This document shows, one piece after another, positions 35,601-60,560 of a stretch of 64,000 bases of DNA. Below the pieces are notes generated by a model. The model was not told the DNA's origin. It searched no databases and saw nothing but the letters and a program-made list of their open reading frames with translations. Made by a program: the position numbers and the translations under genes. The stretch lies in the IMG/VR virus record IMGVR_UViG_3300031992_000041, positions 1-64,000 of that record. The stretch is one strand, 5' to 3'. The stretch's first letter is position 1; each line of letters opens with the position of its first letter. This DNA is from a virus (lineage: Duplodnaviria > Heunggongvirae > Uroviricota > Caudoviricetes).

Positions 35601-35630
35601 TTGCAACTTTCGCCTGCAAAGATACGAATA
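35601..35630 (-). promoter_or_regulatory. leftward promoter with operator-like inverted repeat TTGCAACTTT…CAAAGATACGAA
   Basis: same motif family as at 32893 and 60528. Confidence 0.45.
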
Positions 35631-35727
35631 AGTGAGCGAAATACCAAATTTATTTGAGTATTTCCGCGCTCGGCTTGCCGCTTGCTACCGAAGGGACGCA
35701 AGAACGTGAGTATCTTTGAAATATTTT

Positions 35728-35765
35728 CCAATTCTTGCAAGAATTGGCAAGAATTAGCAAGAATT
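35728..35765. repeat. 20-bp perfect palindrome CCAATTCTTGCAAGAATTGG overlapping 3 tandem copies of nGCAAGAATT
   Basis: directly read; abuts the stop of the small lipoprotein ORF. Confidence 0.6.
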
Positions 35766-35921
35766 TTACTTCCATCCCTTCAGCCAGGCCAGCAGGCAGA
35801 CGATGGCCAGGAACCAGTTGCCCACGGTGCCGTCGTCCTCGCCGCCCGTGTCGCAGGAGGTGAGCAGGAGAGTTGTTGATACTGCGAAGATGATGTTTGC
35901 GATGATGATGTTCTTTTTCAT
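35766..35921 (-). CDS. small putative lipoprotein/membrane peptide (51 aa)
   Basis: MKKNIIIANIIFAVSTTLLLTSC… signal peptide plus lipobox-like LTSC; high-GC3 codons; the track's alternative-frame ORF 35650..35940 is compositionally implausible. Confidence 0.35.
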   Translation of the reverse strand: MKKNIIIANIIFAVSTTLLLTSCDTGGEDDGTVGNWFLAIVCLLAWLKGWK

Positions 35922-36073
35922 TGTTTGTTTCAATTTTCAATTTTCAATCACGGTTAGTCCGCGCTTGCGGGCCTTTTCGTAGAAGTCCTGCCGCACCTCC
36001 TCGGTCGGGAACCAGGCGAGCATTCGCCGTTCCCGTCCGTCCGGTGCGCGGAGGGTAAGTTCATAGATGCGGT

Positions 36074-36394
36074 TCATAGCTTCTCGCATAGTTTGTTCAT
36101 CTTAGTCCAGAGGTTATGCAGGTCGTTCCAAAACTCGGGCACCTGCGTCTGTTCTCCGTGCCGGTTATACTCTTTGAGCATAGCGTCACGCAATTCATGG
36201 ACAGCGGCGAAGTATTCATGCCGCAATTCCTTCCAAGTCATCTTACTGGGTTCCTCAATAGTGTAATCCGTGGAAACACTGTCTGCTTCAAGAGATTCCG
36301 TAGCGAACGCTACGTTTCCGTGCTCGAGTTCGTGTTCGGCGCCTTGTATAAGCGTTGATTCAGGTACGATAAACGTCAATGTTACTTTCTTCAT
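36074..36394 (-). CDS. hypothetical protein (106 aa)
   Basis: ORF track; AAACAAGTAACGACTATG context. Confidence 0.5.
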   Translation of the reverse strand: MKKVTLTFIVPESTLIQGAEHELEHGNVAFATESLEADSVSTDYTIEEPSKMTWKELRHEYFAAVHELRDAMLKEYNRHGEQTQVPEFWNDLHNLWTKMNKLCEKL

Positions 36395-36399
36395 AGTCG

Positions 36400-36636
36400 T
36401 TACTTGTTTATGTTTCCTTTTTGTTTGAACTTGCCATACTCCCAGAGTTCTATCACCCCGTATGTCAGTTTGGGGAATTCATGGAACATCATGGTGAGAT
36501 AGTTTTTGTATTGCTTTCGTTCGTCCTTACTGAAATTTACTCCAGTAAGATTGTTGAAGATGATAGCGCAGGAAGGATTGTCCTCTCCAGGTGCCGTCAT
36601 TATCACTTGTCCGTTCTGTTTGATTTGCTGTGCCAT
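36400..36636 (-). CDS. hypothetical protein (78 aa)
   Basis: ORF track. Confidence 0.45.
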   Translation of the reverse strand: MAQQIKQNGQVIMTAPGEDNPSCAIIFNNLTGVNFSKDERKQYKNYLTMMFHEFPKLTYGVIELWEYGKFKQKGNINK

Positions 36637-36651
36637 AGTTCGTTTGATGTT

Positions 36652-36957
36652 TCAATGTTTGACAACAGTAAAATACTGCGAGTCGTCAACTACACTACGG
36701 TCTTTCCCTACCCATGTCACGGCTCTGACAGGCTCCAGTGTCCTGACGTGATCCTTCATTTTGAAGTGAAGTTCATAGTCAGCATTTTCTCCTGCGAAGT
36801 AGATGCCCCACGTTTTTCCATCGTTCCATTCCTCGTCAACGATGTCGGTCGCCTGGTTCTTCTTCGACTTACTGAGTGTTGTCAGATCGTCACTGACGAT
36901 GGCCGTCACCTTGACGACCTCGCCGTTTGACTTGAATGTGCATTTGATAGTTCTCAT
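36652..36957 (-). CDS. hypothetical protein (101 aa)
   Basis: ORF track. Confidence 0.5.
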   Translation of the reverse strand: MRTIKCTFKSNGEVVKVTAIVSDDLTTLSKSKKNQATDIVDEEWNDGKTWGIYFAGENADYELHFKMKDHVRTLEPVRAVTWVGKDRSVVDDSQYFTVVKH

Positions 36958-36972
36958 AATTCGCTTGATGTT

Positions 36973-37167
36973 TTAATGATTACCTTCCACTTCTATGACC
37001 TCATGAGCCATGCCGATGAACGTCAGCCAGTCGCTTGCACGCTTCGCTTCTGCCTCGTCCATCTTCAGGCAGTACACGATGTCGTCGATAAATCTCGTAG
37101 GTCGGAGCCTGTACAGGTACTCCGTGCAGTTCTTCCTGGTGTTCCAGATCTTGATTGTCTTTGCCAT
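36973..37167 (-). CDS. hypothetical protein (64 aa)
   Basis: ORF track; CTAAAACAAGTAACGACTATGG context. Confidence 0.45.
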   Translation of the reverse strand: MAKTIKIWNTRKNCTEYLYRLRPTRFIDDIVYCLKMDEAEAKRASDWLTFIGMAHEVIEVEGNH

Positions 37168-37186
37168 AGTCGTTACTTGTTTTAGT

Positions 37187-37453
37187 TCATGCCCCTAAGT
37201 CGTCGAAATAATCCGTCCAGCGGTCTCTGCACCACGGATGGCTCTCCGGGAAGTACGGCCAGGCATGCCATTGCATACGCTGGTTGTCTGTGATGAAGCC
37301 GCAGTTGTACTTAGCGCCTGGATATGGCGAATCCTGCTCGCTTCTATACACTCTGCCTTTGGTGTAGGCTTCTTCAGACTTACCGCCTACACCTTTCCGG
37401 TTGACGGTCTTCTTGCACAGATACCTGTGTCCTTTGATGATTCTTGGTTCCAT
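37187..37453 (-). CDS. hypothetical protein (88 aa)
   Basis: ORF track; same start context. Confidence 0.45.
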   Translation of the reverse strand: MEPRIIKGHRYLCKKTVNRKGVGGKSEEAYTKGRVYRSEQDSPYPGAKYNCGFITDNQRMQWHAWPYFPESHPWCRDRWTDYFDDLGA

Positions 37454-37621
37454 AGTCGTTACTTGTTTTAGTTTATGCCACTCTCTTGTATCTCTCCCGT
37501 GAATAGTACGGCGTGTGCCAGTTCGTGCGCCACACCGCCTTGCGCTTGCCGGGCGGCACGATGGCCTTGCTCAGCACGTCTAACAGTTCCCGCATCTCAT
37601 TGTCCATAACTGTGATGTTTT

Positions 37622-37852
37622 TCAACGCTTGTCAATCCATGCCGTCACACCGTTGTAGATGCAACGGTCGTTCTGGCTCAGTGAGTTCACGAAGTCCCTG
37701 TCGACGCGCTGCCCGCCCATATACCCGAAGCCGGACAGCAGGCATTGCCGCACCTTCGTCATGCAGTCAATTACGCCGTGGCGCATGCTCCACTTTTTCA
37801 TTACAGGGTTTTCAACTTTGTATTTCAAGCTGGCGATTTGTTGATTGCCCAT
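37622..37852 (-). CDS. hypothetical protein (start at MGNQQIASL)
   Basis: ATG (rc) 37850-37852 preceded by AAACGAATACGAACT. Confidence 0.4.
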   Translation of the reverse strand: MGNQQIASLKYKVENPVMKKWSMRHGVIDCMTKVRQCLLSGFGYMGGQRVDRDFVNSLSQNDRCIYNGVTAWIDKR

Positions 37853-37865
37853 AGTTCGTATTCGT

Positions 37866-38456
37866 TTAATTCGTAGTCTTCTTCCATTCGCAATACACAT
37901 ACTGCATGAGTCGCTCGGCCCACTTACTGTCGAGTTCCCTGTAGAACTTCATCCATGCTCCCATCGTGTCGTCGTGGCAGACATCGCATAGGTGAGAGAA
38001 CTTCGAGCAAAAGTGCTGGTAGAGATAGTGCTGCTTCGAGCCCACCATCCAGAGTATCACCTCTTCGTAGGGCGGGTGGTTGTAGCAGAAGCCTGCCCAG
38101 CGGTCCATCATAGCCGTGAGTTGCTTCACGTCCGGCTTATCCTCCTGCTTCCGCTCGATGTCCTTGGCGAACTGGTCGAGGGTGTAGATGCCATCGACGG
38201 TGTGGCCGTGGTCGAAGAAGGCGTGGAACACTCCTGCATTGAACATGAACTCGTACTTACGGATGGCCTTGCTGCCGTCCATGGCGATCACGTCGATGGG
38301 GAACAGCCCGCCGCCCTTGTCTATCAGCACTTCGGGATAGTCCTCGTGCCAGAACTGCTCCAGTGCATCCCAAACTTCGGGTGCCTCGTCATACTGGAAG
38401 ATGAATACCTCGCCGTCAACCACGGCCTTCAGAATGTAATTCGCTGTTGTTGTCAT
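37866..38456 (-). CDS. hypothetical protein (196 aa)
   Basis: ORF track. Confidence 0.5.
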   Translation of the reverse strand: MTTTANYILKAVVDGEVFIFQYDEAPEVWDALEQFWHEDYPEVLIDKGGGLFPIDVIAMDGSKAIRKYEFMFNAGVFHAFFDHGHTVDGIYTLDQFAKDIERKQEDKPDVKQLTAMMDRWAGFCYNHPPYEEVILWMVGSKQHYLYQHFCSKFSHLCDVCHDDTMGAWMKFYRELDSKWAERLMQYVYCEWKKTTN

Positions 38457-38550
38457 AGTCGTAAAGTTTAAATTCGATTTGTTTTGTTTATGACTCCCGA
38501 TTTCGTAGGATTCTCACGAAAAGTGGGGTGTAAATGTGATTTTTTCTCGT

Positions 38551-38898
38551 TTACGCCACCTCTGCCACATACACCGGCAGGCCGGAGGCGGTCATAATTG
38601 TGCGCCAGCGGCGGTTGAGTATATCTATCTTCATCCGCAGTGTGCGGTAGGTGGTCTTGATTTCTGTGCGCTTCAGCAGTTTGTTCTTCACTCGCTGGCG
38701 CACTTCCACCATGACCGAACTGATGCCGTCCGTATCGGCGCCCTTGATGCCGTACCAGTAGCGTGGCAGTTTCCCGAAGGCACCATGCATGCGGTCATGC
38801 TCCACCAGTGTCTTCACCTCCTTCAGTATGCGCTCGCCGTCGGCGGGTGTCTCGTCAGCAAAGCCGATGTTTACTTTCCATTTCTTTTCCTGTGCCAT
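38551..38898 (-). CDS. hypothetical protein (115 aa)
   Basis: ORF track. Confidence 0.5.
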   Translation of the reverse strand: MAQEKKWKVNIGFADETPADGERILKEVKTLVEHDRMHGAFGKLPRYWYGIKGADTDGISSVMVEVRQRVKNKLLKRTEIKTTYRTLRMKIDILNRRWRTIMTASGLPVYVAEVA

Positions 38899-38911
38899 AG
38901 TCGTATTCGGT

Positions 38912-39670
38912 TTAGTGTTTTTTGTTTCTCTCGATTTCTCGCTGCTCTGCCTTGTTAGCCCATCGGCACAGTGGAATGTCGTTCCTGCCCGTTGCCTCCT
39001 TAATCAGTCCAATACCAAGGCGCATATTATAGTGTTCCTCCACAAAGTCCGTGAGTGGCTTGCGGTCACGGTAGCAGCCGGTGCCTATGTCGTTCAGGTC
39101 GGTGCGACGGTTGGGGATAGCCAGACGGCCTGCCACACCTCTCAGCACGTCCCACTTGCACTTGTAGAGGTTCTTGCGCTTTGTGGTGGCCATCGCAACA
39201 AGTGCGTCCGTCACGTCGGTGTTGGAGTAGGTGTCCCAGTAGAGCTGCCGCTCGTCCTCTTCCGACGTGGTGACGATCACGTCGCCGTAGTTGTCAGTCC
39301 AGCGGTACTTGCACGATTGCATACCACGGAACGCGGCTTCCAGTGCCTCGATGTCTTCCGGCTTCACCTCGCCGCTGATATCCTGCGGATGACAATACAG
39401 ATACTGCGACCCTTTCGTCAGCTCAGGACATTCGCCTGGTCCGTAACTCTCCTTGCGGAGCACCCAGCCTCTTGCCAATAGCAGCTGCACCACCTCGTTG
39501 TCGAATGCGGCCACAGCCTTTTCTTCTGCCTCTCGTGCCTCCTGGCTATAATCGTTCAGTGCCACGACGTAATCGCGGATGTCAATGCGGAAGTAGACGT
39601 CAGCCAATACCTCACGTCCGAATCCCTCATAATGCTTAACCTGTGGTCTCATGTCGATTGTTGTAATCAT
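38912..39670 (-). CDS. hypothetical protein (252 aa)
   Basis: ORF track. Confidence 0.5.
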   Translation of the reverse strand: MITTIDMRPQVKHYEGFGREVLADVYFRIDIRDYVVALNDYSQEAREAEEKAVAAFDNEVVQLLLARGWVLRKESYGPGECPELTKGSQYLYCHPQDISGEVKPEDIEALEAAFRGMQSCKYRWTDNYGDVIVTTSEEDERQLYWDTYSNTDVTDALVAMATTKRKNLYKCKWDVLRGVAGRLAIPNRRTDLNDIGTGCYRDRKPLTDFVEEHYNMRLGIGLIKEATGRNDIPLCRWANKAEQREIERNKKH

Positions 39671-39684
39671 AGTCGTATATGTTT

Positions 39685-39981
39685 TTAATGTTTCAAAATA
39701 AATCTTCTACAGTCAATTGCCGTGTCTCTCCACGAGCTAACCTTTGTGGGTTTCGGTCTTTCTGAATGATACCATGCCACAAGGTGATGTCTCGCATAGT
39801 TGGCGTGACCTGTATCATACCCGTCGTGAATGGCATTGTCTATCATCGTGAGCATGTAGCCGTTGGGGTTCGGTAGCCTCCAGTTTCCCCACGACTTTGC
39901 ATTGATTTTCTCGTCGATGGTCAGGTCTTTATAGAACTCAGACCACGGACCGATCACTAATGGTTTTGCATACTTTGCCAT
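39685..39981 (-). CDS. hypothetical protein (start at MAKYAKPL)
   Basis: ATG (rc) 39979-39981 preceded by CTAAAACGAATACGAACT. Confidence 0.45.
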   Translation of the reverse strand: MAKYAKPLVIGPWSEFYKDLTIDEKINAKSWGNWRLPNPNGYMLTMIDNAIHDGYDTGHANYARHHLVAWYHSERPKPTKVSSWRDTAIDCRRFILKH

Positions 39982-40003
39982 AGTTCGTATTCGTTTTAGT
40001 TTG

Positions 40004-40585
40004 TTACTCGATAATAGAAAACACGTCGCCGTCGCCTTCAAGGTCTCTCCAGCGAAACTCCAGCCAGTTACGGTCTTCCTCCATGATGCCGTTACCCTTG
40101 TCACGCACGCCGAACCTCATGCTGCTGATTTCGGACACATGGCGCAGAGAGATATGCTTTGCAAAGATCTTGGCTTTTCTCATGGCCTCGCGCTTATCGT
40201 CGCCTGTGAAGTCGACTATGATATCGCGCAATTCCTGAACAGTCATGCCGTACTTCCGCCTGTCGGTGGCGGTTGGCACATCGACTTCTTTCGCCTCCAG
40301 CTTTACTTGCACCTTGTAGCCGTCGTATGCTGAACTGCTGACGATATACAAATCCATGCCTCGCTGCTCTTCCACGTCATACTTACAGTCCTCATCACGG
40401 CTGTCTTCGTTCTCGTCCCACTGGCTGCCCCATTCACACTCATCGTATGCCAGATTGCAGTCGCTTTCAAACTGCTTGCGAGCTTCCGCTTCATCCGTGA
40501 ATGTCTTAACATCGCTGTACAGATAGTCGTCACCGTCGGCGTAGCTGCACCAACTCAAAATAAAAATCGTTGCCTTCATAATCAT
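40004..40585 (-). CDS. putative secreted/lipoprotein (193 aa, acidic)
   Basis: N-terminal signal-like MIMKATIFILSWCSYADG. Confidence 0.5.
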   Translation of the reverse strand: MIMKATIFILSWCSYADGDDYLYSDVKTFTDEAEARKQFESDCNLAYDECEWGSQWDENEDSRDEDCKYDVEEQRGMDLYIVSSSAYDGYKVQVKLEAKEVDVPTATDRRKYGMTVQELRDIIVDFTGDDKREAMRKAKIFAKHISLRHVSEISSMRFGVRDKGNGIMEEDRNWLEFRWRDLEGDGDVFSIIE

Positions 40586-40619
40586 TTTTTCTTGTAAAAT
40601 TCTTGTAACTTTTGTTATC

Positions 40620-40952
40620 TTACGCTGCTTCGTTGAGTGTCCACTCTTCGAGGTTCAGGTTCTCTTCAAGTGTGGGCGTTTGATTATTGTCGAAGAAATA
40701 GTCGAGCCAGCTTTCTATCTGTTTCTCGCGGGCTTCCTCCAGTTCTTTCTTTACCCACTTGCCAAAGCACTTACGCACATCCCACTCTGCAGGGTCGAAG
40801 TCGTTGCACTCATGGGTAATTCTGCGAAGTTCGCTACGCACAGTCTCGCTCAGTGCTTCGTCGTTGTTGAATACACCTATCAGTTCCATGCTGCCGGTGC
40901 TCATCCACTGGTCGCTCCTGTATAGCAGGAACACGCTGTCGTTCTCTTCCAT
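40620..40952 (-). CDS. hypothetical protein (110 aa)
   Basis: ORF track; TTAAAACGAATACGACTATGG context. Confidence 0.5.
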   Translation of the reverse strand: MEENDSVFLLYRSDQWMSTGSMELIGVFNNDEALSETVRSELRRITHECNDFDPAEWDVRKCFGKWVKKELEEAREKQIESWLDYFFDNNQTPTLEENLNLEEWTLNEAA

Positions 40953-41004
40953 AGTCGTATTCGTTTTAATTATTCGTGAAATTGGTAGTCGTTAAGGAAG
41001 GAAA

Positions 41005-44000
41005 TCAGGCGGCTTCGCGGAAGTCGTCTGATTTCTTGTCCTTGTTGAGCTCGCTGTTGATCTTGCGGTCGAGGATCGCCAGGTCGCCGCGCAACTTCTG
41101 CAGGTCGGCCTCCCTGCCCCACTCTATGCCGAGGATGCTGTCGAGTTGGGCGATGCTCTCGCTGTTGCGCTGCATCAGCCGCTTCCACCCGTCGATGCGC
41201 TCCGGTATGGCCATCAGCGCCTTCAGCGGGAACTCCGCAGAGGTGCGGGCACTGGCATGGTTCAGGTAGCCGTCGTTCCACGTGTGCTTCACGCTGCCCG
41301 TGCCCTCCACGCTGAACCTGTTCTCATGCACCATCCTTCCGTCGCCGTCCATATAGGTCCTCACCGTACGGATGAGCAGTCTGAAACCGTAGATGCTGCC
41401 CACGGGGATGTGGGCGTCGCTGGTATCGACGTTCCTGTCGAGTTGCAGCAGGCGCTCGCCGATAGCCTTCTTCCACTCGTCGCTGTCAGGCTCCATATCC
41501 TCAGGCACCGTGAAGCCGTCGATGACGATGTCGTTAGCCACGAAGCCGTCCTTGTCGGCACGCTTGCGCTCCAGAAACAGGTCGTAGTCGGCCTGTGCGT
41601 CCTTGCAGTGCCGGGCATACAACTCGTTCTGCTTCTGCAGCGTGCTGCGCTTGTCCTCCTGCTCACGCTTGTCACGGTAGAAATTCTTCTTCTCGCTCTC
41701 CAGGGCGGCGATCTTCTTCTCCAACTTGGCACGCTCCAGCAGGTCGGTGTTGCCTGACAGGATGGCCATGTACTCGGAGAAGTTCATGCCGGTGTTCTCG
41801 TCGAACGAGCCCTCGTCCAGCGTGCGGATGTCGAGTTGTCCGCGCTTCAGTTGGTTGATGAACGTCTGCTTGCAGTGCAGCAGGTTGAACTTGTAACTGT
41901 CAAGGCTCCGCTCCACGGCATAGATTATAATATCTACCTTGTTGTCGGCAAAGTCACGGGCAATCTCGTTACCCTTGCGGATGGCACGGCCGTCGCGCTG
42001 CTCCAGGTCGCTGGGTCGCCACGGCGTGTCGAGGTGATGCACCGCCACCACCCTCTCCTGGGCGTTGACGCCCGTGCCGAGCATGCTGGTCGAGCCGAAC
42101 AGCACCCTCACCTTGCCGTCGTTGACATCCTTGATGAGCGCCTGCTTCTTCGAGTCGCACTTGCACTCCTGGATGAAGCGTATCTCCCTGGCGGGGATGC
42201 CGTAGTCGTCCGTGAGCTTGCGCTTGATCTCCTCATAGACGTTCCACTTGCCGTCGCCCTGATAGGTTGAGAGGTCGCTGAACACCAACTGCGTGCCCTT
42301 CTGCTCGTCGTACTGGTCGTAGTAGCGCTTGATGAGCTGTGCGCACTTGCTGGCCTTGCTCCTCGGGTGGTCTGCATAGCCGGCATCAATCAGACGCATG
42401 TCGAGCGACATCTTGCGTGCCATGTCGGTGGCATAGAGCATCTTCGCCTTCTGCTGCTTGTCCGTCGGATTATTGATGCCTATCAGCGAGAAGTCGCCGC
42501 TCTGTGCGAACTTCATCAGCCGCTTGATAAATTCCTCCTGATCGGGGGTGGGCTTGATGTTCAGCAGCATGGCGTGCTTCGCCGGACGCTCGATGCCCAC
42601 GTCCTCCGCCGTGCGGAAGTCCGTTATCTCGTTGTAGAACATCGCCAACTCAGGCACCTTGATGAAATAGCGGAAGCGCTCCTTCAGCACGATCTGGTTG
42701 GTGATCGAGAACTCGAACTCCTGGCTCTTCTTGGTGAAGATGGCAGCCCATGCGTCAAAGCAGGTGATGCCCTGCTTGGCAAGCGCCTTCGGACGCAGAT
42801 AGCGGAACAGCGAGTACAGTTCCGTCAGCGAGTTAGTCACCGTGGTACCGCTCAGGAACGTCGCCCCGAGGTCACGCCCCGTCTTCTGCTGGATGGTGCG
42901 AATGGCCATCAGCAGGTTATAGGCACGCTTGCTTCCCTCGGTGTTGCCCATGCCTGCCACACGGTCGTGGCGGCTGCTGAAGCCGAGGTTCTTGAACTGG
43001 TGCGACTCATCCACGAAGATATGGTCGATGCCCAGCAGGTCGAAGTCCGTCACGTCGTCCTTCTTCTTGCGGATATCGTTCTGCAGGCCGAGGATTTTCG
43101 CCTCCATGTTACGCTTGCGCTGCTCCAGGCCGCGGCGCACACGGCTCGACATCTGATAGCCCCAGCCGTTGATGGCCTTCAGGCTTTCCTCTATCTGAGC
43201 CACCTCCTCACGCATCAGTTCCATCTGCACACGGTCGCTCTGCGGTATGCGTCCGAACTGGTCGTGGCTCATGATCACGCAGTCCCAGTCGTTGTTCTTC
43301 ATGCGGTTGAAGAAGTCGATGCGGTTCTGACCGCTGTAGTCGGCCTCACGGGCAAAGAGTATCTTTGCCTCAGGGTATGCAGTCCTGTAGGTCTCTGCGA
43401 TGGCACTGACGTTAGCCTTCAGCCCGATAATCATCGGCTTGTGGCACATGCCCAGCCGCTTCATCTCATGGGCTGCCATACACATGATGAGCGTCTTGCC
43501 TGCGCCTACCTCGTGGTCGCAGATGCCGCCGCCGTTCAGCAGCAGCATCCACACGCAGTCCTTCTGACTCTGGTAGATGCTCCTGATGCCGTACTTCTTC
43601 TCCAGCCCCTTCAGGTCGATGCCGGGGAAGGTCTGGTGCGAGCCGTCATACTTCGGCTTCACGAAGCAGTTGAACTTGCGGTTGTACACATCGGCCAGAT
43701 GCTCCTTGAACTCACGGCTCTGGCGCTGCAGCCAGTCGGCATAGCCCTGGCGTATCTCCTCCACCTTGGTATTGGCCAACTGCGTCTTCTCGGGGTCTTC
43801 CTCCTTCAGGTAGTCGCCACGGTCGTTCTGCATCTTACACCCTCTGGAGTCACGGATATAGCGCATCATCTTCGGACAGGTGTTCTGCAGGGCATGCACC
43901 AGCAGGTCCATGCCGTCGAGGTCGGTCACCTCGCTCCTCACGGCATACTGCGTGTATATCTTCTGGTTGCCTCGGTCGTTCTCGACGGCGTACTGGTCGA

Positions 44001-46237: not shown

Positions 46238-46250
46238 AGTCGTAATCGCT

Positions 46251-50403: not shown

Positions 50404-50415
50404 TTCTCGTTTTAG

Positions 50416-50763: not shown

Positions 50764-50775
50764 AGTCGTTTCGTT

Positions 50776-51420: not shown

Positions 51421-51439
51421 TGTCTCGTCGTTTTAATAG

Positions 51440-51826
51440 TTATGCCCATTTGCATTTCCCGTTCCTGACCGTTCCGTGGTCGCAGCCGGAATCGGGCCAG
51501 ATTTTAATTTCAGAGCCGTCAGCCATATAAGGTGCAATAACCTCAAAGGCATCCATCATAACACCTTCCCAGCCATAACAGGCATCGAAGTCGGCATACA
51601 TCCACTCCTTGTCAGGGGCGGTGTCGAGCCTGCCTTTCCAACCGCCGAAGAATATGCCCATCAGGTCATGCAGGTTGTCAGTACCTATACCAAGTTCCTT
51701 GAAGTGGTCAAGGTTATAGTTGATACGTTCCTCTTCATGCCTGTCAAGTTTAGCCTGCAGTGCTTTCTTTGCACCGTCCTCGTCAGTGAATCGTGCTTTA
51801 ATTTCTACAGAATAACATTGTCCCAT
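51440..51826 (-). CDS. hypothetical protein (128 aa)
   Basis: ORF track. Confidence 0.5.
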   Translation of the reverse strand: MGQCYSVEIKARFTDEDGAKKALQAKLDRHEEERINYNLDHFKELGIGTDNLHDLMGIFFGGWKGRLDTAPDKEWMYADFDACYGWEGVMMDAFEVIAPYMADGSEIKIWPDSGCDHGTVRNGKCKWA

Positions 51827-51841
51827 AATTCGTTGTTCTTT

Positions 51842-52639: not shown

Positions 52640-52646
52640 TACTATT

Positions 52647-53489: not shown

Positions 53490-53516
53490 GTCTTAATCTC
53501 TTTAATCTGTGGTTTC

Positions 53517-54572
53517 TTACGCTGCCAGCGGCAGGGCCAGCGGGTGCATGGCCTTGGCCACAGCGTCGTACTTACGCAGGATATAGTTCGTCGCCTTCTG
53601 CACATGGTCGATGACGCTTGGGATAAAGTCCTTGTCGTCGCGCAGCGCCTGCCGCCAGTTCTGCACATAGGCGATGTGGTTCTCATCAAGTAACTTGCCG
53701 ATGCCCAGCATGGAGCATACGCAGGCAGCCGTCAACTCCGCCACGAACTCCTCCTTGGCATAACTCTCCGTGCCGAACGAGCCGCCCAGATCGCGCTTCA
53801 CGTCGGGAGCTGTAGAGTGCGCCATCTCATGTATGGCCGTGGCATAGAACTGATGGTCGCCCTTGAACTGGCTCCGATTGGGCAGATGCACACAGTCCTC
53901 CTTGGGGCTGTAGTAGCACTCATGGCCGCCGAACACCACCTTGCAGCGCCACTCGCCACCCTCGATCATCTTGTCGAGCACCTCGTCCACCGTGCCCTGC
54001 TCATAGTCGTGCGGCGGGATAGCCGTCAGTTTCTCCCACTTCTCGGGGAACTTCTCCCTGAAGTTGGTCTGGGATAGGTTGAACTCGGGGAAGGCCCGCA
54101 TAGAGAAGAACTTTCTGCACTCGGCCTTTTCCTCGTCCGATAGTTCGTCGTACTCCTTTGGCGTCAGTCGCTTGCCGTCCTTGTAGAAGTTAGGCAGCAT
54201 CTTCACCACGGGGAAACTGCTCTGGAACACGGGCAGGCCCTTGTCGTTGAACACAGGCATGCCGTCCTCGTCCGTCTTCATATTCAGGCTCAGTCCCATG
54301 TCCGTCAGTTGATCGAAGGTCAGGAAGTAAGGCGTCTCCCACCCCTTGATGCTGCACAATAGCGTCAGCAGGAAGTTGTTCATGCCCCGATAGGGCTTGC
54401 TCCTGCGCTGATAGTTGGCGGGCTCCCCGTGCGCCGGTGCCACCCACGGCTTATTATACTTTGCGCCCTCCATCTCATCAAGGGCGACGGTGAATAACTC
54501 GGCATACTTCGCCTTCTGTTTGTCGTTCATCTGGAACCCCTTACGGGCTCCGTTAGTCTTTGTCTGTTTCAT
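53517..54572 (-). CDS. ardC: ArdC-like antirestriction protein (ArdC_N/DUF1738 plus zincin HExxH domain)
   Basis: N-terminal YNKPW…PYRGMNNFLL…GWETPYFLTFDQ pattern of ArdC_N; C-terminal AIHEMAHST zinc-metallopeptidase motif. Confidence 0.75.
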   Translation of the reverse strand: MKQTKTNGARKGFQMNDKQKAKYAELFTVALDEMEGAKYNKPWVAPAHGEPANYQRRSKPYRGMNNFLLTLLCSIKGWETPYFLTFDQLTDMGLSLNMKTDEDGMPVFNDKGLPVFQSSFPVVKMLPNFYKDGKRLTPKEYDELSDEEKAECRKFFSMRAFPEFNLSQTNFREKFPEKWEKLTAIPPHDYEQGTVDEVLDKMIEGGEWRCKVVFGGHECYYSPKEDCVHLPNRSQFKGDHQFYATAIHEMAHSTAPDVKRDLGGSFGTESYAKEEFVAELTAACVCSMLGIGKLLDENHIAYVQNWRQALRDDKDFIPSVIDHVQKATNYILRKYDAVAKAMHPLALPLAA

Positions 54573-54710
54573 AACTCGTAATTTTTTGTTTAATTTTGAA
54601 TTTAATTTTGTTCAATTTCCACCCGTCAGGGTGTTAAAAAAGGGGAGCCTGGGGCAGCCAAGCATCGTCCTCCCTCTCCATAGGCATTTGGGCTCCCCTA
54701 TAGATATCGC

Positions 54711-55511
54711 CTACGCTGCCTTACCCATAGCGTTCACGATATCCATCGCCTCCTTGTCGCCGGCGATAACGCGTTTGATCAGGTCGGCCACCTCCTGCTC
54801 GGTATAGACCTTACCCTCGGGCTTCTCTGCCTTGTGCTCCTCGCGCTCGGCCTTCGCCTGAGCCTTGTCAGCGGCACGCTTTTCGTCGTACTTGGCCAGC
54901 ATAGCCTTGCAATCGTCGATGCTCTTGCCCTCGTTCAGCGCGTCGCACAGTTGCTTGGCGAACGCCACGTATGCCTTGCCGAACAGCAGGCAGCCGTCCT
55001 GCGGGCTTCCGTGCAGCACGGCGGCTGTATCTTTCTTATAGACCGCATCGTCATCCTTGAACCCTGCAATCTTGGCACAGGTCTTGCCCTTCTTGTTCTG
55101 ATAGGTCGAATAGGTGAATGACTGGCTCTTCTTATTCGCAGCCTGCGAAGAATCAGGTGCCTGTCCCTGTGATTTGCCGCCCTTAGCCTTGCCCTTGGGC
55201 TTTTCGGCCTTAGGCTCGCCCATCTTCACGGTCTTGGCCTTGGGCTTCTCAGGCTTGATGTCCTCGACCTCCTCCACGTCGTCGCTCGCCTTGGTCTCCG
55301 TAGCGGTAGTGCCGTCAGCAAACTTCCAACCGCCTGCCAGCAGTTTCTCCACCTGCGCCACAGGCATAGGCATCGCCACTGGTGCACGGTCGCCAGAGGT
55401 AAACTCCACCTTGATTTTCTCGTCGTCGATAGCCTCGGTGACGACATACTTCATGTTACCATTCACGATTGTCTTGCCGATAAGGTCGGCGGCCTTTACA
55501 TTCTTTGTCAT
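54711..55511 (-). CDS. hypothetical Lys-rich protein (266 aa)
   Basis: ORF track. Confidence 0.5.
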   Translation of the reverse strand: MTKNVKAADLIGKTIVNGNMKYVVTEAIDDEKIKVEFTSGDRAPVAMPMPVAQVEKLLAGGWKFADGTTATETKASDDVEEVEDIKPEKPKAKTVKMGEPKAEKPKGKAKGGKSQGQAPDSSQAANKKSQSFTYSTYQNKKGKTCAKIAGFKDDDAVYKKDTAAVLHGSPQDGCLLFGKAYVAFAKQLCDALNEGKSIDDCKAMLAKYDEKRAADKAQAKAEREEHKAEKPEGKVYTEQEVADLIKRVIAGDKEAMDIVNAMGKAA

Positions 55512-55676
55512 AGTCTCTGAATTTTTATTGTTACGATTTTGTTCCGTTAATACTCACGCTGCCATAGCCAGCGTATCCTGCTCGTCCTCGTCGTACTCTA
55601 CGCCGAGCGAGTTCATAAAGCGCTCCATCTTGGCACGTTCTCTTCTGTCTAATCTTCTCATAGTCGTTTTGATAGT

Positions 55677-55964
55677 TTACGCTGCCATAGCCATCTGCAC
55701 GGGCAGGGCCATGTTCAGCAGTTGCACGTTCACTTCGGGTAGGAATGGCATATCGAGCCATACAACCGTATAGCCCCAGTCCTCGTCTATAGGCGAGAAC
55801 GTCCCGAAGAACGCCTCGCAAATCATTCTCACGTCGGCCATCACGGGCACGTTAGCCTTGTCGATAGCCAACTGGTCTTCGTCACTCCAGTCGCAGAACT
55901 TTGCACCGTGCGCAGTAGCACACTTCTGCATAGCCTCTTTCAGATTCTCCAAATTTGCTTTCAT
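55677..55964 (-). CDS. hypothetical protein (95 aa)
   Basis: ORF track; ends …AMAA. Confidence 0.45.
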   Translation of the reverse strand: MKANLENLKEAMQKCATAHGAKFCDWSDEDQLAIDKANVPVMADVRMICEAFFGTFSPIDEDWGYTVVWLDMPFLPEVNVQLLNMALPVQMAMAA

Positions 55965-55966
55965 AA

Positions 55967-56314
55967 TTATGCTGCCTTAGTGTTCATTCCAAAATCTTCT
56001 CTCTCGTCCCAGGGGATATAGAGCAGTTCGCTCTCGATGAGTGCGTCGATAGCCACACGGGCACACTTACAGGCCCACTCGTTGCGCGGATCGAAGCGAC
56101 CCTTGCGTTCACAGATAGCCAACTGCTTCAAATACTCGATACACAACTTGGCACGCTCCTGCACCAGATAGCGGTGGTCTTGCGCCATAGCCTGCGCCAC
56201 CTCTTTCGTGTGGCTCAGACCGCCGTTAATAAACCTGCTCTCCGTCTCCACGAACTCCACTTCTCGCTCGTAGAGTTTTGCCTTAATCTCATCATACATA
56301 GTCTTGCCCTCCAA
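55967..56314 (-). CDS. hypothetical protein (115 aa)
   Basis: ORF track. Confidence 0.45.
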   Translation of the reverse strand: MEGKTMYDEIKAKLYEREVEFVETESRFINGGLSHTKEVAQAMAQDHRYLVQERAKLCIEYLKQLAICERKGRFDPRNEWACKCARVAIDALIESELLYIPWDEREDFGMNTKAA

Positions 56315-56487
56315 TTTTTAGTTCGACATCATGCAGCCGATAGTCAATAAGGCTGCATCAACAATCCCCATAAACGTCAGCGCGGTAAGAGTCCGCACAA
56401 TAATGCGCTCGCCACGTGGCGTGTTCGCCCAGCGACGCGCTTGTGCCAGGCGATAGTAAACCTTCCGTTTCATAGCCGTATAGTCGT

Positions 56488-56766
56488 TTAATAGTGACGA
56501 ATACCCAATACCCGATGCCCAGTCAGGCGGTCGAGTCGCCTGCTGATTTCGATATAGAGAAACTCCACGCTCAGCGGAGCCACAAAGATGCACGGCAGAC
56601 CGATAGCCAGCCGTACCCATGTCGGTGTGCCGTCGGGGATAGCGTTTGCCAGCGTCGCTGCCGTCAGATACATAGCGTAGAACGTGATGGAAAAACCCGC
56701 TACCATCCACAAAAATCGCACCATCTTAATAGCAACCTTAGTTGCAATAGCCTTAATCTTCTTCAT
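56488..56766 (-). CDS. hypothetical membrane protein (93 aa; start at MKKIKAIA)
   Basis: ATG (rc) preceded by GGGAGGACAAGACT; two predicted TM helices. Confidence 0.4.
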   Translation of the reverse strand: MKKIKAIATKVAIKMVRFLWMVAGFSITFYAMYLTAATLANAIPDGTPTWVRLAIGLPCIFVAPLSVEFLYIEISRRLDRLTGHRVLGIRHY

Positions 56767-56783
56767 AGTCTTGTCCTCCCATA

Positions 56784-56981
56784 TTAGGCGCAAAACCCGT
56801 CGAAGGGGTTCATGTCGATGATAACGGCGTGCTCGCCATACTCCTCCGCCATGTCGGCGAAGGCACACTCCATAGCCTTTGCGTCGGCGGATGTCAGGTG
56901 CATACTTGCAGCCATAGTCGCTGCGATAGATACGATACGCGCACTCTTCTTGGCGGTGCTTACCATAGTCTTTGCTTTCAT
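56784..56981 (-). CDS. hypothetical protein (start at MKAKTM, or at MVSTAKK 15 nt downstream)
   Basis: ORF track with the start moved past the overlap; AGACTATGG context at the alternative start. Confidence 0.35.
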   Translation of the reverse strand: MKAKTMVSTAKKSARIVSIAATMAASMHLTSADAKAMECAFADMAEEYGEHAVIIDMNPFDGFCA

Positions 56982-57162
56982 AATTGTAATTTTTGAATTG
57001 TTGAACACTTGGTTTATTATAACACGTTAAACACATCATTCTCGGTCACACTCTCCACACGCACCTGCTGCCCGTGGTCTTGCATAGTCTGTGCAATAGA
57101 CTCGCACGTTATCCTCTCGCCAATAAACAGGGTGGCGATGCCCATCATAATCTTTGCCATAG

Positions 57163-57396
57163 TTATGCTGCTTTTTTAATACCTGTTTTATGCCTGATAG
57201 AGTCATACTTTGTCGGCTCGTCTGCCGTGAAGATCTGGCGCACGAACTCGCGCACCGTCAGCCCCTGAATCCACGCACCGCCCATGAGCAGCATAGCCAC
57301 TGCCACGGGCGCCTGCCACACGTTTACCACTGCACCGGTAGCCACTGCGAGCCCCAGCGCCATCAGGATAGCACCTGCAATTTGTTTATTCTTCAT
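57163..57396 (-). CDS. hypothetical membrane protein (77 aa)
   Basis: two TM helices; ends …KKAA. Confidence 0.5.
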   Translation of the reverse strand: MKNKQIAGAILMALGLAVATGAVVNVWQAPVAVAMLLMGGAWIQGLTVREFVRQIFTADEPTKYDSIRHKTGIKKAA

Positions 57397-57421
57397 AATT
57401 TCGTCCTCCGAATTTTAGGGG

Positions 57422-57607
57422 TTAGTCAAAATCAAAAACTGTCTCGATAAAGTCACGCAGCCGCTCGTCGTCCCACTTGCAGCCGAGGTCACGGGCAAAT
57501 CCGAACAGGATGTCCTTGACCTCAGGCTCGCTATAGGTGCGCTCGTCGCGCAGTTCATGCAACTTGGGGCGCAACTGCATAATGATACACTTTGCTTCTT
57601 CTGCCAT
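57422..57607 (-). CDS. hypothetical protein (start at MAEEAKCII)
   Basis: ORF track; start adjusted to the ATG after the AGGACTATGG context. Confidence 0.4.
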   Translation of the reverse strand: MAEEAKCIIMQLRPKLHELRDERTYSEPEVKDILFGFARDLGCKWDDERLRDFIETVFDFD

Positions 57608-57620
57608 AGTCCTGATGCCG

Positions 57621-58031
57621 TTAGTAAATTCTACTTTTGCATACACACGTCAGACGACTACCCTCAAAGCGTTTCACCACGATAGTCCTGCCGATGGTTC
57701 CGGCCTGCTCCCTCGATGCGCCATTCTTTGCTTTCTTGGGCTGCAACTGTCCTTTGCCCTCGTTGAACATACGGCTGCGGTTCTCCAACTGGGGCATAGT
57801 GTCCGCCATAGTCTCACGACGCACACGGCTGCGGTCGCTCTCCATAGACCGGCCAGATACACCCCGACGCTCCGCACGAATCCGTTCACGCTCACGATAC
57901 GCCATCAGGCGGTCGTGCTGCTTGCGCTTGGCGATTAGCCACTCACTGCGTTTGCTCATGCCAATCTGCTCTGAAATAGAGGGTGTGCCCCACTCCTCGG
58001 GCAGGACACACATCTGCGATAATGTAGCCAT
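57621..58031 (-). CDS. hypothetical Arg-rich protein (136 aa)
   Basis: ORF track; GCATACGACTATGG context. Confidence 0.5.
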   Translation of the reverse strand: MATLSQMCVLPEEWGTPSISEQIGMSKRSEWLIAKRKQHDRLMAYRERERIRAERRGVSGRSMESDRSRVRRETMADTMPQLENRSRMFNEGKGQLQPKKAKNGASREQAGTIGRTIVVKRFEGSRLTCVCKSRIY

Positions 58032-58079
58032 AGTCGTATGCTTTGATTGTTAATAATTCGTTCTGTCAATTCCCACCGA

Positions 58080-58754
58080 TTAGGCTGCTTTGCGGCTGCT
58101 CTTCTTGGTGCTGCTCTTCTTAGTTCCGGCGGCTGCTTTCTGTGCATTAGAGGCCACTTTCTTCTCTTCTGCTGCGATAGCCCAGGAGCCATTGACGAGT
58201 TTTGCAACACGTACCCACTTCTCGCTCTTCTTGTCGCCCATATTCACCCAACCACTCTTCAGGGCTGCGCACTTTTCTGCGCTCTTCTGAATTTTCTCCA
58301 TAGTCGAGGTAATAAACACACTCTGCTGCAAGCCACGCAGCACGTTAGTAGCATTGACTACGACATCGGTCTTGTCACCTTTGTCTGCTGCTGATACGAG
58401 GGGTACGAGAACTGACTGCGATACGGTCTTAAATTCTCCGTCTTTCTCACTGCAAAGGGTGTACTCCTTGCCGTTGATAGTCACCTGATAGCCGACGGAG
58501 CGCATGATGCACACTTTGCCGTCTTTCATCATTCGAGCACTCCACGCAGTGAAGATGTCCTTTGGGGTGTAACTGTTCTTCAGAACATGAACACCCAGAG
58601 ACTGCATAAGTTCAAGTGGGCGAACTTTCTCCTTATCGCTGATAGCGATATAACCACCGATGCCGGACAGTTGCTTTGCAACCTGACTCCACGACATTGC
58701 TTTTGCACTGAATGACTTAACACCTGCGTTGATAGACTTCTTTGTAGTAATCAT
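58080..58754 (-). CDS. hypothetical protein (224 aa, Lys-rich C-terminus ending …RKAA)
   Basis: ORF track. Confidence 0.5.
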   Translation of the reverse strand: MITTKKSINAGVKSFSAKAMSWSQVAKQLSGIGGYIAISDKEKVRPLELMQSLGVHVLKNSYTPKDIFTAWSARMMKDGKVCIMRSVGYQVTINGKEYTLCSEKDGEFKTVSQSVLVPLVSAADKGDKTDVVVNATNVLRGLQQSVFITSTMEKIQKSAEKCAALKSGWVNMGDKKSEKWVRVAKLVNGSWAIAAEEKKVASNAQKAAAGTKKSSTKKSSRKAA

Positions 58755-58810
58755 AACTTGTCCTATTTAGCCCATAGGTTGGGGGTCTTAAAAGTGAAAC
58801 ATAAAATAGT

Positions 58811-58880
58811 CCCAAACTCATCGGAATCGAACCGATGACAACCGATAATAGACGCAGTCCGCCACCTACTGCATTGTCGC
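58811..58880 (-). other. tRNA-like 3' fragment, paralogous to the element at 26157
   Basis: rc reads …GGACTGCGTCTATTATCGGTTGTCATCGGTTCGATTCCGATGAG: T-arm ATCGG/TTCGATT/CCGAT; shares the ATAGAC…CAGTC flank with the first copy; no 5' acceptor strand. Confidence 0.35.
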
Positions 58881-59235
58881 GATAATGCCCATTATACCCA
58901 TAGGGTTGCAACCATTTTGGGAATGGTACGTGCCCCGCTCCTACAAAAACCGCATACAAAATCCGTACAACTGAAATTTGCGCTAATGATTGCAAAAGTT
59001 TTTTACACCTTTTCGTGATGTTATTAAACGCAGTCTATTGTTACATCATCCAGGTTACATCCGCTGACTACCCTCCGGACTTATGGTTGTGCATCCAGTC
59101 GCATTGCGAACCCAACAAATTGTAGGCGTTTGGCAAATTTACCAAACCTTTGCAACTTAGTGCTGCGCCCCTCGCATCGTATGTAAACAAGTCAAAGTAA
59201 GAACGTCAACGTGACACGCTTGTCGATTGTTGACG

Positions 59236-59250
59236 ATGCAAAGATACGAC
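59236..59250 (-). promoter_or_regulatory. candidate leftward promoter (-7 box TATCTTTG) for a long leader or ncRNA spanning the tRNA-like element
   Basis: GCAAAGATACGA, same motif family as 32906/35618/60549; about 480 nt upstream of the next leftward start codon. Confidence 0.35.
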
Positions 59251-59382
59251 TCGTTCGGCGCAGCATCTGCAGGAAGGTTTTTTTTTATCAAAAAGCATTA
59301 AATCAGAGATTTAACGCTTTTTAATAAAATAAAACCCGCACGCGTCCGTGCCGAACTGCGCGTCCGTGTGCGCCGTCTAACA

Positions 59383-59410
59383 ATCCCGCGCCATGCGGGA
59401 TTTCTTTATG
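59383..59410 (+). terminator. hairpin plus T-rich tract (weak rho-independent terminator-like)
   Basis: CCCGC-gccat-GCGGG followed by ATTTCTTTAT. Confidence 0.3.
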
Positions 59411-59417
59411 CGCGAGG

Positions 59418-59815
59418 ATTTTTGACCCCCATTTTTGGCCCATAAATAACAACCTGCGCAGGTTATTGCTTATTCATGCGTGCAGTGGAAAATAACAGGC
59501 GGGTGTTATTTACTATGACCTATTCTGCCCACCATTTTGGCCCCATAAATACTAACAGGCATGCAGGGTTGTCTATTTATGGCGCACTGAGAACTAACCT
59601 GCGCAGGTTGTTGCTTATTCATGCGTGCAGTGGAAAATAACAGGCGGGTGTCGTTATTTATGACCCATTCTGCCCACCATTTTGGCCCCATAAATACTAA
59701 CAGGCATGCAGGGTTGTCTATTTATGGCGCACTGAGATCTAACCTGCGCAGGTTATTGCTTATTCATGCGTGCAGTGGAAAATAACAGGCGGGTGTCATT
59801 ATCTATGGGGCATAT
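59418..59815. repeat. 145-bp tandem repeat array (about 2.6 copies plus a degenerate lead-in), each unit carrying the perfect palindrome AACCTGCGCAGGTT
   Basis: units start at 59451, 59596 and 59741 with >95% identity; internal CCATAAATA/TATTTATGG inverted elements; lies in non-coding DNA. Confidence 0.85.
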
Positions 59816-60100
59816 TTGCAGCCGTTTGCACCGTGGTTGCACCCACCCCAGCACCCCAGCGAGGCGCGGGGTCTTCTCTGTGATGAAGAAAAAAAAACTG
59901 AAAACGTTGTACGTTGGTGGTTGTTTATTCTTATAAAACAAAAAAGATAAAGATAAATATTCTTTGTTTGTATGTCCGCAAAGAACCATTCGTTGATATA
60001 AACAACAATTTGGCAGAAGAATAATCTGCCATTAACATACTATTAAGGAGAATGTTTTTATATGGTTTAGATTATTATATATATTATAAAGGTACTCTAT

Positions 60101-60160
60101 ATATAATTTATAAAGGTATATACGCACGCATACGCACTCATACGCACGTGCGTATATACA
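60101..60160. repeat. 12-bp inverted repeat TATATACGCACG/CGTGCGTATATA flanking two CATACGCA direct repeats (terminator-like structure after the 60171 gene)
   Basis: directly read; immediately 3' of the stop of the minus-strand gene 60171..60521. Confidence 0.5.
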
Positions 60161-60170
60161 AAAAGAAGGA

Positions 60171-60521
60171 TCACCATTTTATGCCCATCTTCTTCATTAC
60201 TTTGTTTGTCTTTTCCAATGTGCCAGGACCTATCCCGTCAAGATCAAGCAACTGACCCGGTGTCATTGAAAGAAACTGGCTGAGCGTGGTTACACCTTTT
60301 CGAGCCAGTGCATTACGCAGGCGAACGGCATAGGATTTATGCTTATGGCCAAACGCCTCGCACAAATCATCCATCGTGAATTGCACATCTATTTCTTTCT
60401 CCGTGTCTGATGTCGGAGGTGTAAGCAGTTCAGTAAGACATTTACAAATGTCGCTAAGTTCGTACTCTACTTTTTCTATCCTCTTCAGGATGACGGTAAT
60501 GTTTTGATTATTCTCTTTCAT
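60171..60521 (-). CDS. helix-hairpin-helix DNA-binding protein (116 aa)
   Basis: C-terminal TTLSQFLSMTPGQLLDLDGIGPGTLEK resembles an HhH / RNAP alpha-CTD-like motif. Confidence 0.5.
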   Translation of the reverse strand: MKENNQNITVILKRIEKVEYELSDICKCLTELLTPPTSDTEKEIDVQFTMDDLCEAFGHKHKSYAVRLRNALARKGVTTLSQFLSMTPGQLLDLDGIGPGTLEKTNKVMKKMGIKW

Positions 60522-60527
60522 TTATCG

Positions 60528-60560
60528 TTGTAACTTTTGTTTGACGTTGCAAAGATACAA
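60528..60560 (-). promoter_or_regulatory. leftward promoter (-7 TATCTTTG) embedded in inverted repeat TTGTAACTTTTG…CAAAGATACAA
   Basis: about 28 nt upstream of the 60521 start; third copy of the operator-like inverted repeat. Confidence 0.45.

Follow-up and report, generated by a model that had tools for sequence, protein, structure and literature searches.

Promoter boxes and start-codon leaders as the probable components of an operator-like repeat in a phage-like mobile element of rumen Bacteroidota

The primary sigma factor of the Bacteroidota recognises a consensus formed by TAnnTTTG centred at -7 and TTTG near -33, which lies upstream of 81% of the primary start sites of B. thetaiotaomicron, with a commonest leader length of 23 nt, and whose -33 element is not always detectable (PMC7366714). 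This sigma-ABfr promoter (-7 TAnnTTTG, -33 TTTG) goes back to Bayley et al. 2000, as quoted in PMC7366714. Here we analyse 64,000 nt of the IMG/VR virus record IMGVR_UViG_3300031992_000041 (positions 1 to 64,000, hereafter the window), where a first-pass annotation had described one inverted repeat at four leftward promoters (sites 1 to 4, Table 1) and had proposed that a single helix-turn-helix (HTH) regulator controls them. We find that the motif is probably put together, within a large mobile element, from two ordinary expression signals: the promoter box of the host and a leader at start codons. The four copies, together with a fifth box at 62495-62502, are likely to be host-RNA-polymerase promoters that head the leftward units of an almost wholly leftward-coded region. 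The operator-like repeat would be explained by two generic signals mirroring each other, and the value of this result is mostly corrective; the parts of most interest are the geometry of site 1 and the RNA of site 4.

Host-type promoters are known, and here they are carried by a mobile element. The boxes are like sigma-ABfr promoters in that exact TAnnTTTG is found at five leftward and two rightward sites (32900 and 63114) in AT-rich intergenic DNA, and in that the leaders of sites 2 and 3 would be around 15-25 nt long, close to the mode in B. thetaiotaomicron. They differ from the chromosomal promoters of this type in their location on a mobile element and in an extended consensus (tyG before TA and CA after the G), and from full sigma-ABfr promoters in that sites 1, 3 and 4 have an imperfect -33 element or none.

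Site 1, where two boxes face each other, may be compared with two further systems. In P2/186 phages the lytic promoter and the lysogenic one are oriented face to face, with 40-60 bp between them (PMC7498355). The layout of site 1 is similar, with opposing promoters between divergent regulator genes and HTH genes on both sides, as read from the sequence of the window and its relatives, and in a distant subgroup of the relatives the facing boxes are 117 nt apart, a geometry comparable to that of P2/186. Nevertheless, the -7 boxes of site 1 are only 3-4 bp apart, so that the polymerase footprints would coincide almost fully, neither an integrase nor proof of lysogeny was seen in the 64 kb of the window, and the likeness is one of layout. 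The other system is that of the bidirectional promoters of E. coli, in which two -10 elements overlap and transcription diverges, whereas site 1 has two separate -7 boxes facing each other, whose RNAs would share about 5 nt. As outlined in PMC12825309, one short symmetrical segment of these pseudo-symmetrical promoters engages the polymerase either way, in a mutually exclusive manner. Site 1 likewise has a short symmetrical segment at which one binding event would exclude the other.

Regarding the start-codon leaders, the closest case is that of the start-associated sequences (SAS) of Cluster K mycobacteriophages, which Pope and co-workers reportedly described in 2011 directly before many start codons of one genome, and which are said to contain the Shine-Dalgarno (SD) core. 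The motif of our window is also short, conserved and placed directly before many start codons of one genome. Unlike the SAS, it is rich in A and C, has no SD and follows a Kozak-like pattern of the Bacteroidia (PMC6847099).

A host promoter box in the right half of the repeat

The primase-like protein encoded at 28678-32154 (1158 aa) has 16 relatives of 64-79% identity in IMG/VR, on contigs of up to 144 kb. Five further relatives came from rumen metagenome-assembled genomes labelled Bacteroidaceae or Prevotella, labels that derive from binning and not from isolation. The IMG/VR class of the relatives is viral. We infer that the window is part of a large phage-like mobile element whose hosts, judging from this binning, would be rumen Bacteroidaceae/Prevotella. 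The window shows 64 kb of an element of around 110-145 kb, and nearly all of its genes are on the minus strand.

The right half of the repeat (CAAAGATA) is, by its sequence, the reverse complement of the -7 element TAnnTTTG of the host primary sigma factor (sigma-ABfr), as had already been recognised for a Bacteroidota -7 box. In the related loci we found 20 sites with TTTG-N18-21-TAnnTTTG against 2.25 in shuffles, and these 20 sites gave the same consensus, tTyG-TA(t/c)C-TTTG-CA, where nn was TC in nine of them and CC in five. Every position of CAAAGATACRA, including the flanking YG and CA, corresponds to this family-wide promoter consensus, whose commonest local form is tyG-TATC-TTTG-ca. With these flanks TAnnTTTG would mark the few host-polymerase promoters in Bacteroidota phage sequence, and since such boxes would mark promoters of this kind, they could be used to split Bacteroidota phage genomes into transcription units.

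The window contains 21 TAnnTTTG boxes on both strands, 11 of them on the minus strand. Thirteen of the 21 are intergenic, although intergenic DNA represents 11.1% of the window, and all four sites are intergenic too; therefore, the motif is not evenly spread through coding sequence, and the association with promoters suggested by the first-pass annotation stands. Scans for sigma-70 promoters and terminators were uninformative for a host of this type.

As the annotation had said, the four sites head leftward units. However, it had missed the fifth leftward box and both rightward ones. The fifth (62495-62502) is as good as the cited sites and lacks the repeat, and it heads the genes 61620-62306 and 61248-61550 and the HU-like gene 60787-61236. 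The rightward box at 63114-63121 has a counterpart in the orthologous locus L020, where TATCTTTG precedes the same plus-strand gene. Transcription would start a few nt downstream of these boxes. Between box and ATG there are 22-29 nt in the case of site 2, 29-36 nt in that of site 3, but 58-65 nt in that of site 1.

In the orthologues of sites 2, 3 and 4 a -7 box is retained, its nn being TC, CC or AC, but the inverted repeat is not. At site 2, a promoter region of 45 nt is almost unchanged in L014 and L016, and in L021 and L010 the promoter is kept without the small open reading frame (ORF) that follows it in the window. At site 3, the orthologues L027 and L029 have TATCTTTG and TACCTTTG (TATC and TACC) at the equivalent position.

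Two observations concern the surroundings of these boxes. Upstream of the site 2 box (35625-35720; L014 6300-6392; L016 16780-16860), the spacer TTTCGCTCACTTATTCG and the sequence GAAGATACTCACGTTC above it are almost identical, and a hairpin GTATCTTTGAcctgcggTCGAAGATAC is present in L014 and L016, of which the window retains only the right arm as an orphan plus-strand box at 35711. Sites 3 and 4 (60538-60557 and 59239-59258, minus strand) share the first transcribed bases, TATCTTTGCAwCGTCAA(A)CAA, as does a promoter of L002 (5480); at site 4 these bases form the 5' arm of a conserved hairpin (CGTCAAC...GTTGACG), and the orthologues of site 3 lack them.

Table 1. Positions of the motif copies, candidate promoter boxes, leaders and RNA domain in the window
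Feature	Position	Strand	Remarks
TTGYAACTTT	32897, 35601, 60528	+	Sites 1, 2 and 3
TTGYAACTTT, further copies	40603, 62386	+, -	
CAAAGATAC	32911, 35617, 59239, 60550	+	Sites 1, 2, 4 and 3
CAAAGATAC, further copies	35710, 43359	-	35710 in doubtful ORF 35650-35940; 43359 coding
GCAAAGATACGAC	59237-59249		Site 4
Site 1, leftward -7 box, TATCTTTG	32911-32918	-	ATTG at 32938-32941, 19 nt upstream
Site 1, rightward -7 box, TAACTTTG	32900-32907	+	3-nt gap from the opposing leftward box
Site 1, extended 48-bp near-palindrome, TCACGAA-N7-TAACTTTG-gcg-CAAAGATA-N8-TTCGTGA	32886-32933		
Site 2, -7 box, TATCTTTG	35617-35624	-	-33 TTTG at 35645-35648, spacer 20 nt
Site 2, leader, AAAGTTGCAACGAGT	35596-35610	-	Abuts ATG 35595 of the 68-aa ORF 35389-35595; left arm of the first-pass annotation
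Site 3, -7 box, TATCTTTG	60550-60557	-	Without well-placed -33 element
Site 3, leader, AAAGTTACAACGATAA	60522-60537	-	Precedes ATG 60521 of gene 60171-60521
Site 4, -7 box, TATCTTTG	59239-59246	-	Without well-placed -33 element
Site 4, non-coding leader, ~480 nt	58755-59234	-	Precedes gene 58080-58754
Site 4, tRNA-like 3' domain	58810-58922	-	Acceptor-like helix UCCCAAA/UUUGGGA; T-arm GGTTCGATTCC at 58824-58834
Fifth leftward candidate promoter, TACCTTTG	62495-62502	-	-33 TTTG at 62523-62526, 20 nt upstream
Rightward -7 box, TAACTTTG	63114-63121	+	Precedes plus-strand gene, likely ATG 63131
Leader motif copy, AAAGTTACAA	40603-40612	-	Intercistronic gap, 17 nt before ATG 40585, no -7 box nearby

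The facing boxes of site 1

Between the two divergent units, the rightward box of site 1 is the only exact one, and it probably serves the HTH gene 33016-33720 (234 aa). The leftward unit comprises 32401-32853 (coiled-coil protein), 32157-32444 (XRE-type HTH protein) and the primase-like gene 28678-32154. The window and 12 relatives share two exact TAnnTTTG arms that are 3-4 nt apart. In most of these 12 the arm facing the primase has TTTG or ATTG 19-22 nt upstream. On the other side, an HTH gene of 228-252 aa starts 68-116 nt past the reversed box in all 10 relatives examined, several of which have no other exact box between the reversed arm and that gene. We also observed a two-codon mini-ORF (ATG GAC TAA) at 32864-32872 on the minus strand, where the L001 orthologue begins its coiled-coil protein; the coiled-coil protein of the window starts at 32853, unlike this orthologue.

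If the boxes are centred at -7, each transcription start would fall inside the opposing box, polymerases on the two promoters would have coinciding footprints, and their RNAs would overlap at the 5' ends. Because each promoter would start inside the box of the other, polymerase could hold only one orientation at a time, leading either to the primase operon or to the divergent gene of the 234-aa HTH protein. The pair, 3 nt apart and kept in a dozen relatives, is thus a compact candidate for mutual exclusion and promoter competition between divergent regulator genes.

The face-to-face layout appears to be the conserved trait. In the distant subgroup mentioned above (L007, L008, L012 and L016), the facing boxes are of the form TACCTTTG and lie between the primase operon and a different HTH gene of 186 aa (L007 9310/9437, L008 3133/3258, L012 9316/9440 and L016 4986/5111). 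A palindrome AGTTAATTAACT is found between these facing boxes. As a general design of the family, face-to-face pairs were rejected, since only three exact pairs exist outside the orthologues of site 1.

Site 1 is the only true and conserved palindrome, and it is made of two promoter boxes. Its folding energies were -18.5 and -20.4 kcal/mol, with z of -4.8 and -3.6 against shuffled sequence. The flanks matched at 13.2 of 24 positions within genomes and at 11.9 of 24 between genomes (permutation p 0.008), and most of the symmetry would be due to the presence of two copies of one promoter type. Somewhat doubtful, although compatible with the composite reading, is the proposal that this palindrome alone is the operator of one of the two adjacent HTH proteins, which would bias the choice between the facing promoters, sites 2-4 being unrelated. 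The 48-bp palindrome with its outer arms TCACGAA/TTCGTGA fits such an operator, as does the slightly raised flank symmetry within genomes, and this type of palindrome travels with the HTH type of 228-252 aa, the subgroup with the 186-aa HTH protein having a different intergenic layout. However, the excess of symmetry is small, and the arms and flanks fit the generic promoter consensus, which by itself yields a palindrome.

Start-codon leaders in the left half of the repeat

At sites 2 and 3 the left half of the repeat reads as a start-associated leader motif. It lies 5-6 nt from the ATG at both sites, whereas its distance to the -7 box differs. The motif is AAAG(C/T)TACAAC, and a regular-expression survey of the window and its relatives (479 kb) with AAAG[CT]TACA[AC] gave 42 matches, many of them 1-5 nt before an internal ATG, straight after a TAA stop and with no -7 box (for instance L001 18336, L007 23070, L016 16438 and 15017, and L023 10083 and 12319). 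In the window itself, the copy AAAGTTACAA at 40612-40603 has no -7 box nearby, and therefore the left arm occurs without a promoter. A rigid 12-nt matrix of the motif before the ATG scored sites 2 and 3 poorly, because their register is shifted, and picked up the reverse complement of the -7 flank; the assignment of the left arm consequently rests on the family-wide survey.

The gene behind site 3 (60171-60521) encodes a protein of 116 aa with a weak match to the helix-hairpin-helix (HhH) of the RNA polymerase alpha-CTD; it had no relatives in IMG/VR, and homologues were obtained from the protein database. Its orthologues have AAAGCTACAAC-att-ATG and AAAGCTACAAT-N9-ATG after the box; the leader still mirrors the box, at a different spacing and with no hairpin signal. 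In L021 and L010, the orthologues of site 2, there is no 68-aa ORF and the repeat has decayed, the leader of L021 being AAAGCTATAACGA. When the window (35389-35595) was compared with L021 (3453-3520) and L010 (3197-3270), this ORF was seen to sit exactly between the leader motif and a conserved ...ttaagaccccggactgatcgg, like a cassette inserted at a start-associated motif. A read-through hairpin that would hide the start codon was rejected at both sites, where the RNA hairpins had z of -0.65 (site 2) and 0.06 (site 3) and did not surpass shuffled sequence, while site 1 had -4.8.

Between 33.8 and 52 kb, 19 of the 29 genes are preceded by a related form, TAAAAC..TA(A)CGACT-ATG, which mostly lies in short gaps between cistrons without promoters. 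The same 29 genes have A at -3 in 24 cases, at -6 in 18 and at -13 to -15 in 21-23. In a Bacteroidetes model, A-3, A-6, A-12 and A-13 promote SD-independent initiation (Baez et al., PMC6847099), and the enrichment found here matches this Kozak-like pattern of the Bacteroidia. The A-rich leader would belong to a family-wide start-associated motif with A positions suited to SD-independent initiation, which suggests a translational role. Gene starts with the TAAAAC..TA(A)CGACT form on the minus strand include 46490, 46237, 40952, 39981, 38898, 37453, 37167 and 36394, and the corresponding form in the relatives is AAAGCTACA(A)CGAAT(T)-ATG.

In addition, around 20 of the 50 genes in 1-28700 have a strong SD-like AAGGAGG that lies 5-10 nt ahead of the ATG and often overlaps the stop codon upstream (for example 13814, 13253, 12393, 7933, 7509, 4748, 612, 28662 and 23555). 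These genes stand beside those with the start-associated motif, so that two classes of initiation region are present in one element. The inferred host class is reported not to use SD. Near-uniform start-associated motifs alongside SD-like sites, in a host class reported to be free of SD, go beyond what is routine.

It is improbable, in our opinion, that AAAG(C/T)TACAAC and TAAAAC..TACGACT are sites for a factor encoded by the element, such as a RegA-like translational repressor or an RNA-processing enzyme, which would create a post-transcriptional regulon of several tens of genes. The sequence before the starts is almost unchanged between the window and its diverged relatives and is more uniform than the loose A-rich host pattern (PMC6847099), which favours such a factor. 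Nevertheless, we identified no RNA-binding protein as a candidate, known ribosome-related determinants fall at the conserved A positions, and the motifs could also be recombination linkers between gene cassettes.

We consider much less credible the regulon itself, in which one HTH protein (33016 or 32157) would bind the same palindromic operator at four promoters. The copies of TTG(T/C)AACTTT reported for it at 35601 and 60528 were found as described, the first copy starting at 32897 and not at 32893, and the half-site of site 4 was also recovered (Table 1). Read on the minus strand, the sites are GTATCTTTGcgcCAAAGTTACAAC (site 1), GTATCTTTGcaggcgAAAGTTGCAACGAgtATG (site 2), GTATCTTTGcaacgtcaaacaAAAGTTACAACGAtaaATG (site 3) and GTATCTTTGcatcgtcaac... 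(site 4). In dinucleotide shuffles 0.38 copies of CAAAGATAC and 0.28 of TTGYAACTTT were expected, against six and five observed; none of 100 shuffles reached the observed count of either word. The halves co-occur within 20 nt three times, far beyond the chance expectation of about 1e-5 (an estimate from the two shuffle figures), HTH genes flank site 1, and an operator at these positions would overlap the -7 box and the start site, which is the classical position of a repressor; all this favours a single regulator. However, the halves are separated by 3, 5 and 11 nt, the arms of site 2 match at 7 of 11 positions and site 4 lacks the second arm. Furthermore, the right half is fully generic, the left arm follows the ATG and occurs without promoters, the repeat is lost in the orthologues of sites 2-4, and the fifth promoter has no repeat. 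A common palindromic operator would need a fixed spacing, a specificity exceeding that of the promoter consensus, and arms that are both conserved at orthologous sites; all three fail, and it is therefore not supported. The palindrome said to be shared by the sites is present at site 1 only.

Finally, chance resemblance among AT-rich intergenic sequences, for which whole-window shuffles understate the odds of AT-rich words, can be dismissed in view of the six exact 9-mers and of the orthologous boxes, which for sites 1 and 4 are conserved in 12 or more relatives.

The composite reading itself must be set against several points that weigh against it. Sites 3 and 4 have no well-placed -33 TTTG and site 1 has only ATTG, leaving site 2 and the fifth promoter as those with TTTG 20 nt upstream. 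At site 2, relatives with primase-like proteins only 64-71% identical to that of the window (L014 71%, L016 64%) have an almost identical spacer between -33 and -7, which hints at a constraint beyond polymerase binding. At site 1, the reversed box has no conserved -33 and is mutated to TAACTTAG in the closest relative, L021, the 13th one, and the slight excess of symmetry within genomes could also reflect a dimeric protein that reads the palindrome as well. Moreover, all through the family the leader motif comes close to an exact reverse complement of the extended -7 consensus, a coincidence for which we have no explanation, although it is because of this mirroring that a promoter beside a start codon looks like an inverted repeat. 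What we observe directly is the presence of the motif copies, their intergenic location, the generic consensus, the conservation of the site 1 pair and the association of the left arm with starts.

The structured leader RNA of site 4 and other features of the element

The box of site 4 is preceded by an intrinsic terminator hairpin at 59290-59317 on the minus strand. At least 12 orthologues have TATC, TACC or TAAC boxes 55-62 nt before a conserved ACATACGA block, and the flank upstream of these boxes is not conserved. The long leader that the first-pass annotation had placed here exists, and it is non-coding. It is conserved in blocks with variable hairpins between them, in both IMG/VR and metagenome contigs (L017/L020, L018, L026, L027, L029, L031, L032, L035, L037, L041-L044, L046-L049 and L051), and in the homologues found it forms a structured RNA of around 450-550 nt, always upstream of an unannotated protein of around 200-225 aa.

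The site 4 leader is a real conserved structured RNA with strong covariation support. RNAalifold on five sequences gave compensatory double changes in 29 of 77 pairs. The structure specified for the 3' domain combines an acceptor-like helix (UCCCWAA/UUWGGGA) with a T-arm containing GGTTCRATTCC and an inserted domain of two helices. Evaluated on 14 sequences, it has 90% of the cells paired, against 33-48% with slid partners, and in 14 of its 29 pairs both sides change; its covariation score of 0.200 compares with 0.070 for shuffled data and was reached by none of 500 shuffles. The module is tRNA-like: its acceptor-like helix has 7 bp, its T-arm (GGTTCRATTCC) is canonical, and the inserted domain of two helices is optional. 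It might act as a signal for processing by RNase P or RNase Z, or attract tRNA-binding factors by mimicry.

Neither ARAGORN nor Rfam at gathering thresholds found a tRNA or a known RNA in the window, and permissive searches of Rfam 15 with the leader and a compact homologue gave only matches at chance level. The 3' domain was not called a tRNA gene, and relaxed ARAGORN calls were inconsistent between homologues. A search of the literature gave no description of this RNA, a weak sign that it is new. Such a structured RNA, tRNA-like in part and lying downstream of site 4, is beyond routine, and we would give even chances to the joint proposal that the site 4 promoter drives an undescribed class of structured RNAs (around 450-550 nt long, their 3' end folding into a tRNA-like module) carried by large mobile elements of rumen/gut Bacteroidota and that, separately, site 1 is a minimal promoter-competition switch.

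Between the HhH gene and site 4 (59451-59807) there is a tandem repeat of 145 bp, with 2.5 copies that are 94% identical, around a perfect palindrome AACCTGCGCAGGTT. Similar arrays occur in L026 (3700-4060) and L029. This array could be a replication origin or a protein-binding array. Directly downstream of the HhH gene (60120-60160) lies a conserved alternating purine-pyrimidine tract, ACGCACGCATACGCAC...GTGCGTATATAC, with a perfect palindrome ATACGCACGTGCGTAT, and L026, L027 and L029 have it likewise just past the HhH stop. In L026 (686-2998) the HhH orthologue comes directly after an IS605 OrfB/TnpB (Cas12f-like) gene, and not after a promoter.

Regarding the rest of the window, it encodes a DarB-like antirestriction protein, a second antirestriction protein, DNA methyltransferases, RtcB, the HU-like protein and the two XRE-type HTH proteins. 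Pfam and PHROGs scans of the window proteins showed no structural genes, and no integrase was found among the 30 window proteins scanned against Pfam or PHROGs, with 64 kb of the ~110-145 kb in view. Megablast of 28-40 kb against the INPHARED phages gave no close phage relative, and the two HTH proteins had only generic XRE-family matches among the PDB sequences, with no informative solved relatives. Lastly, the genes with a GC content at third codon positions (GC3) of 0.20-0.32 form an island at 22857-26133, surrounded by genes with GC3 of 0.6-0.88, and this island is probably a recently acquired module.

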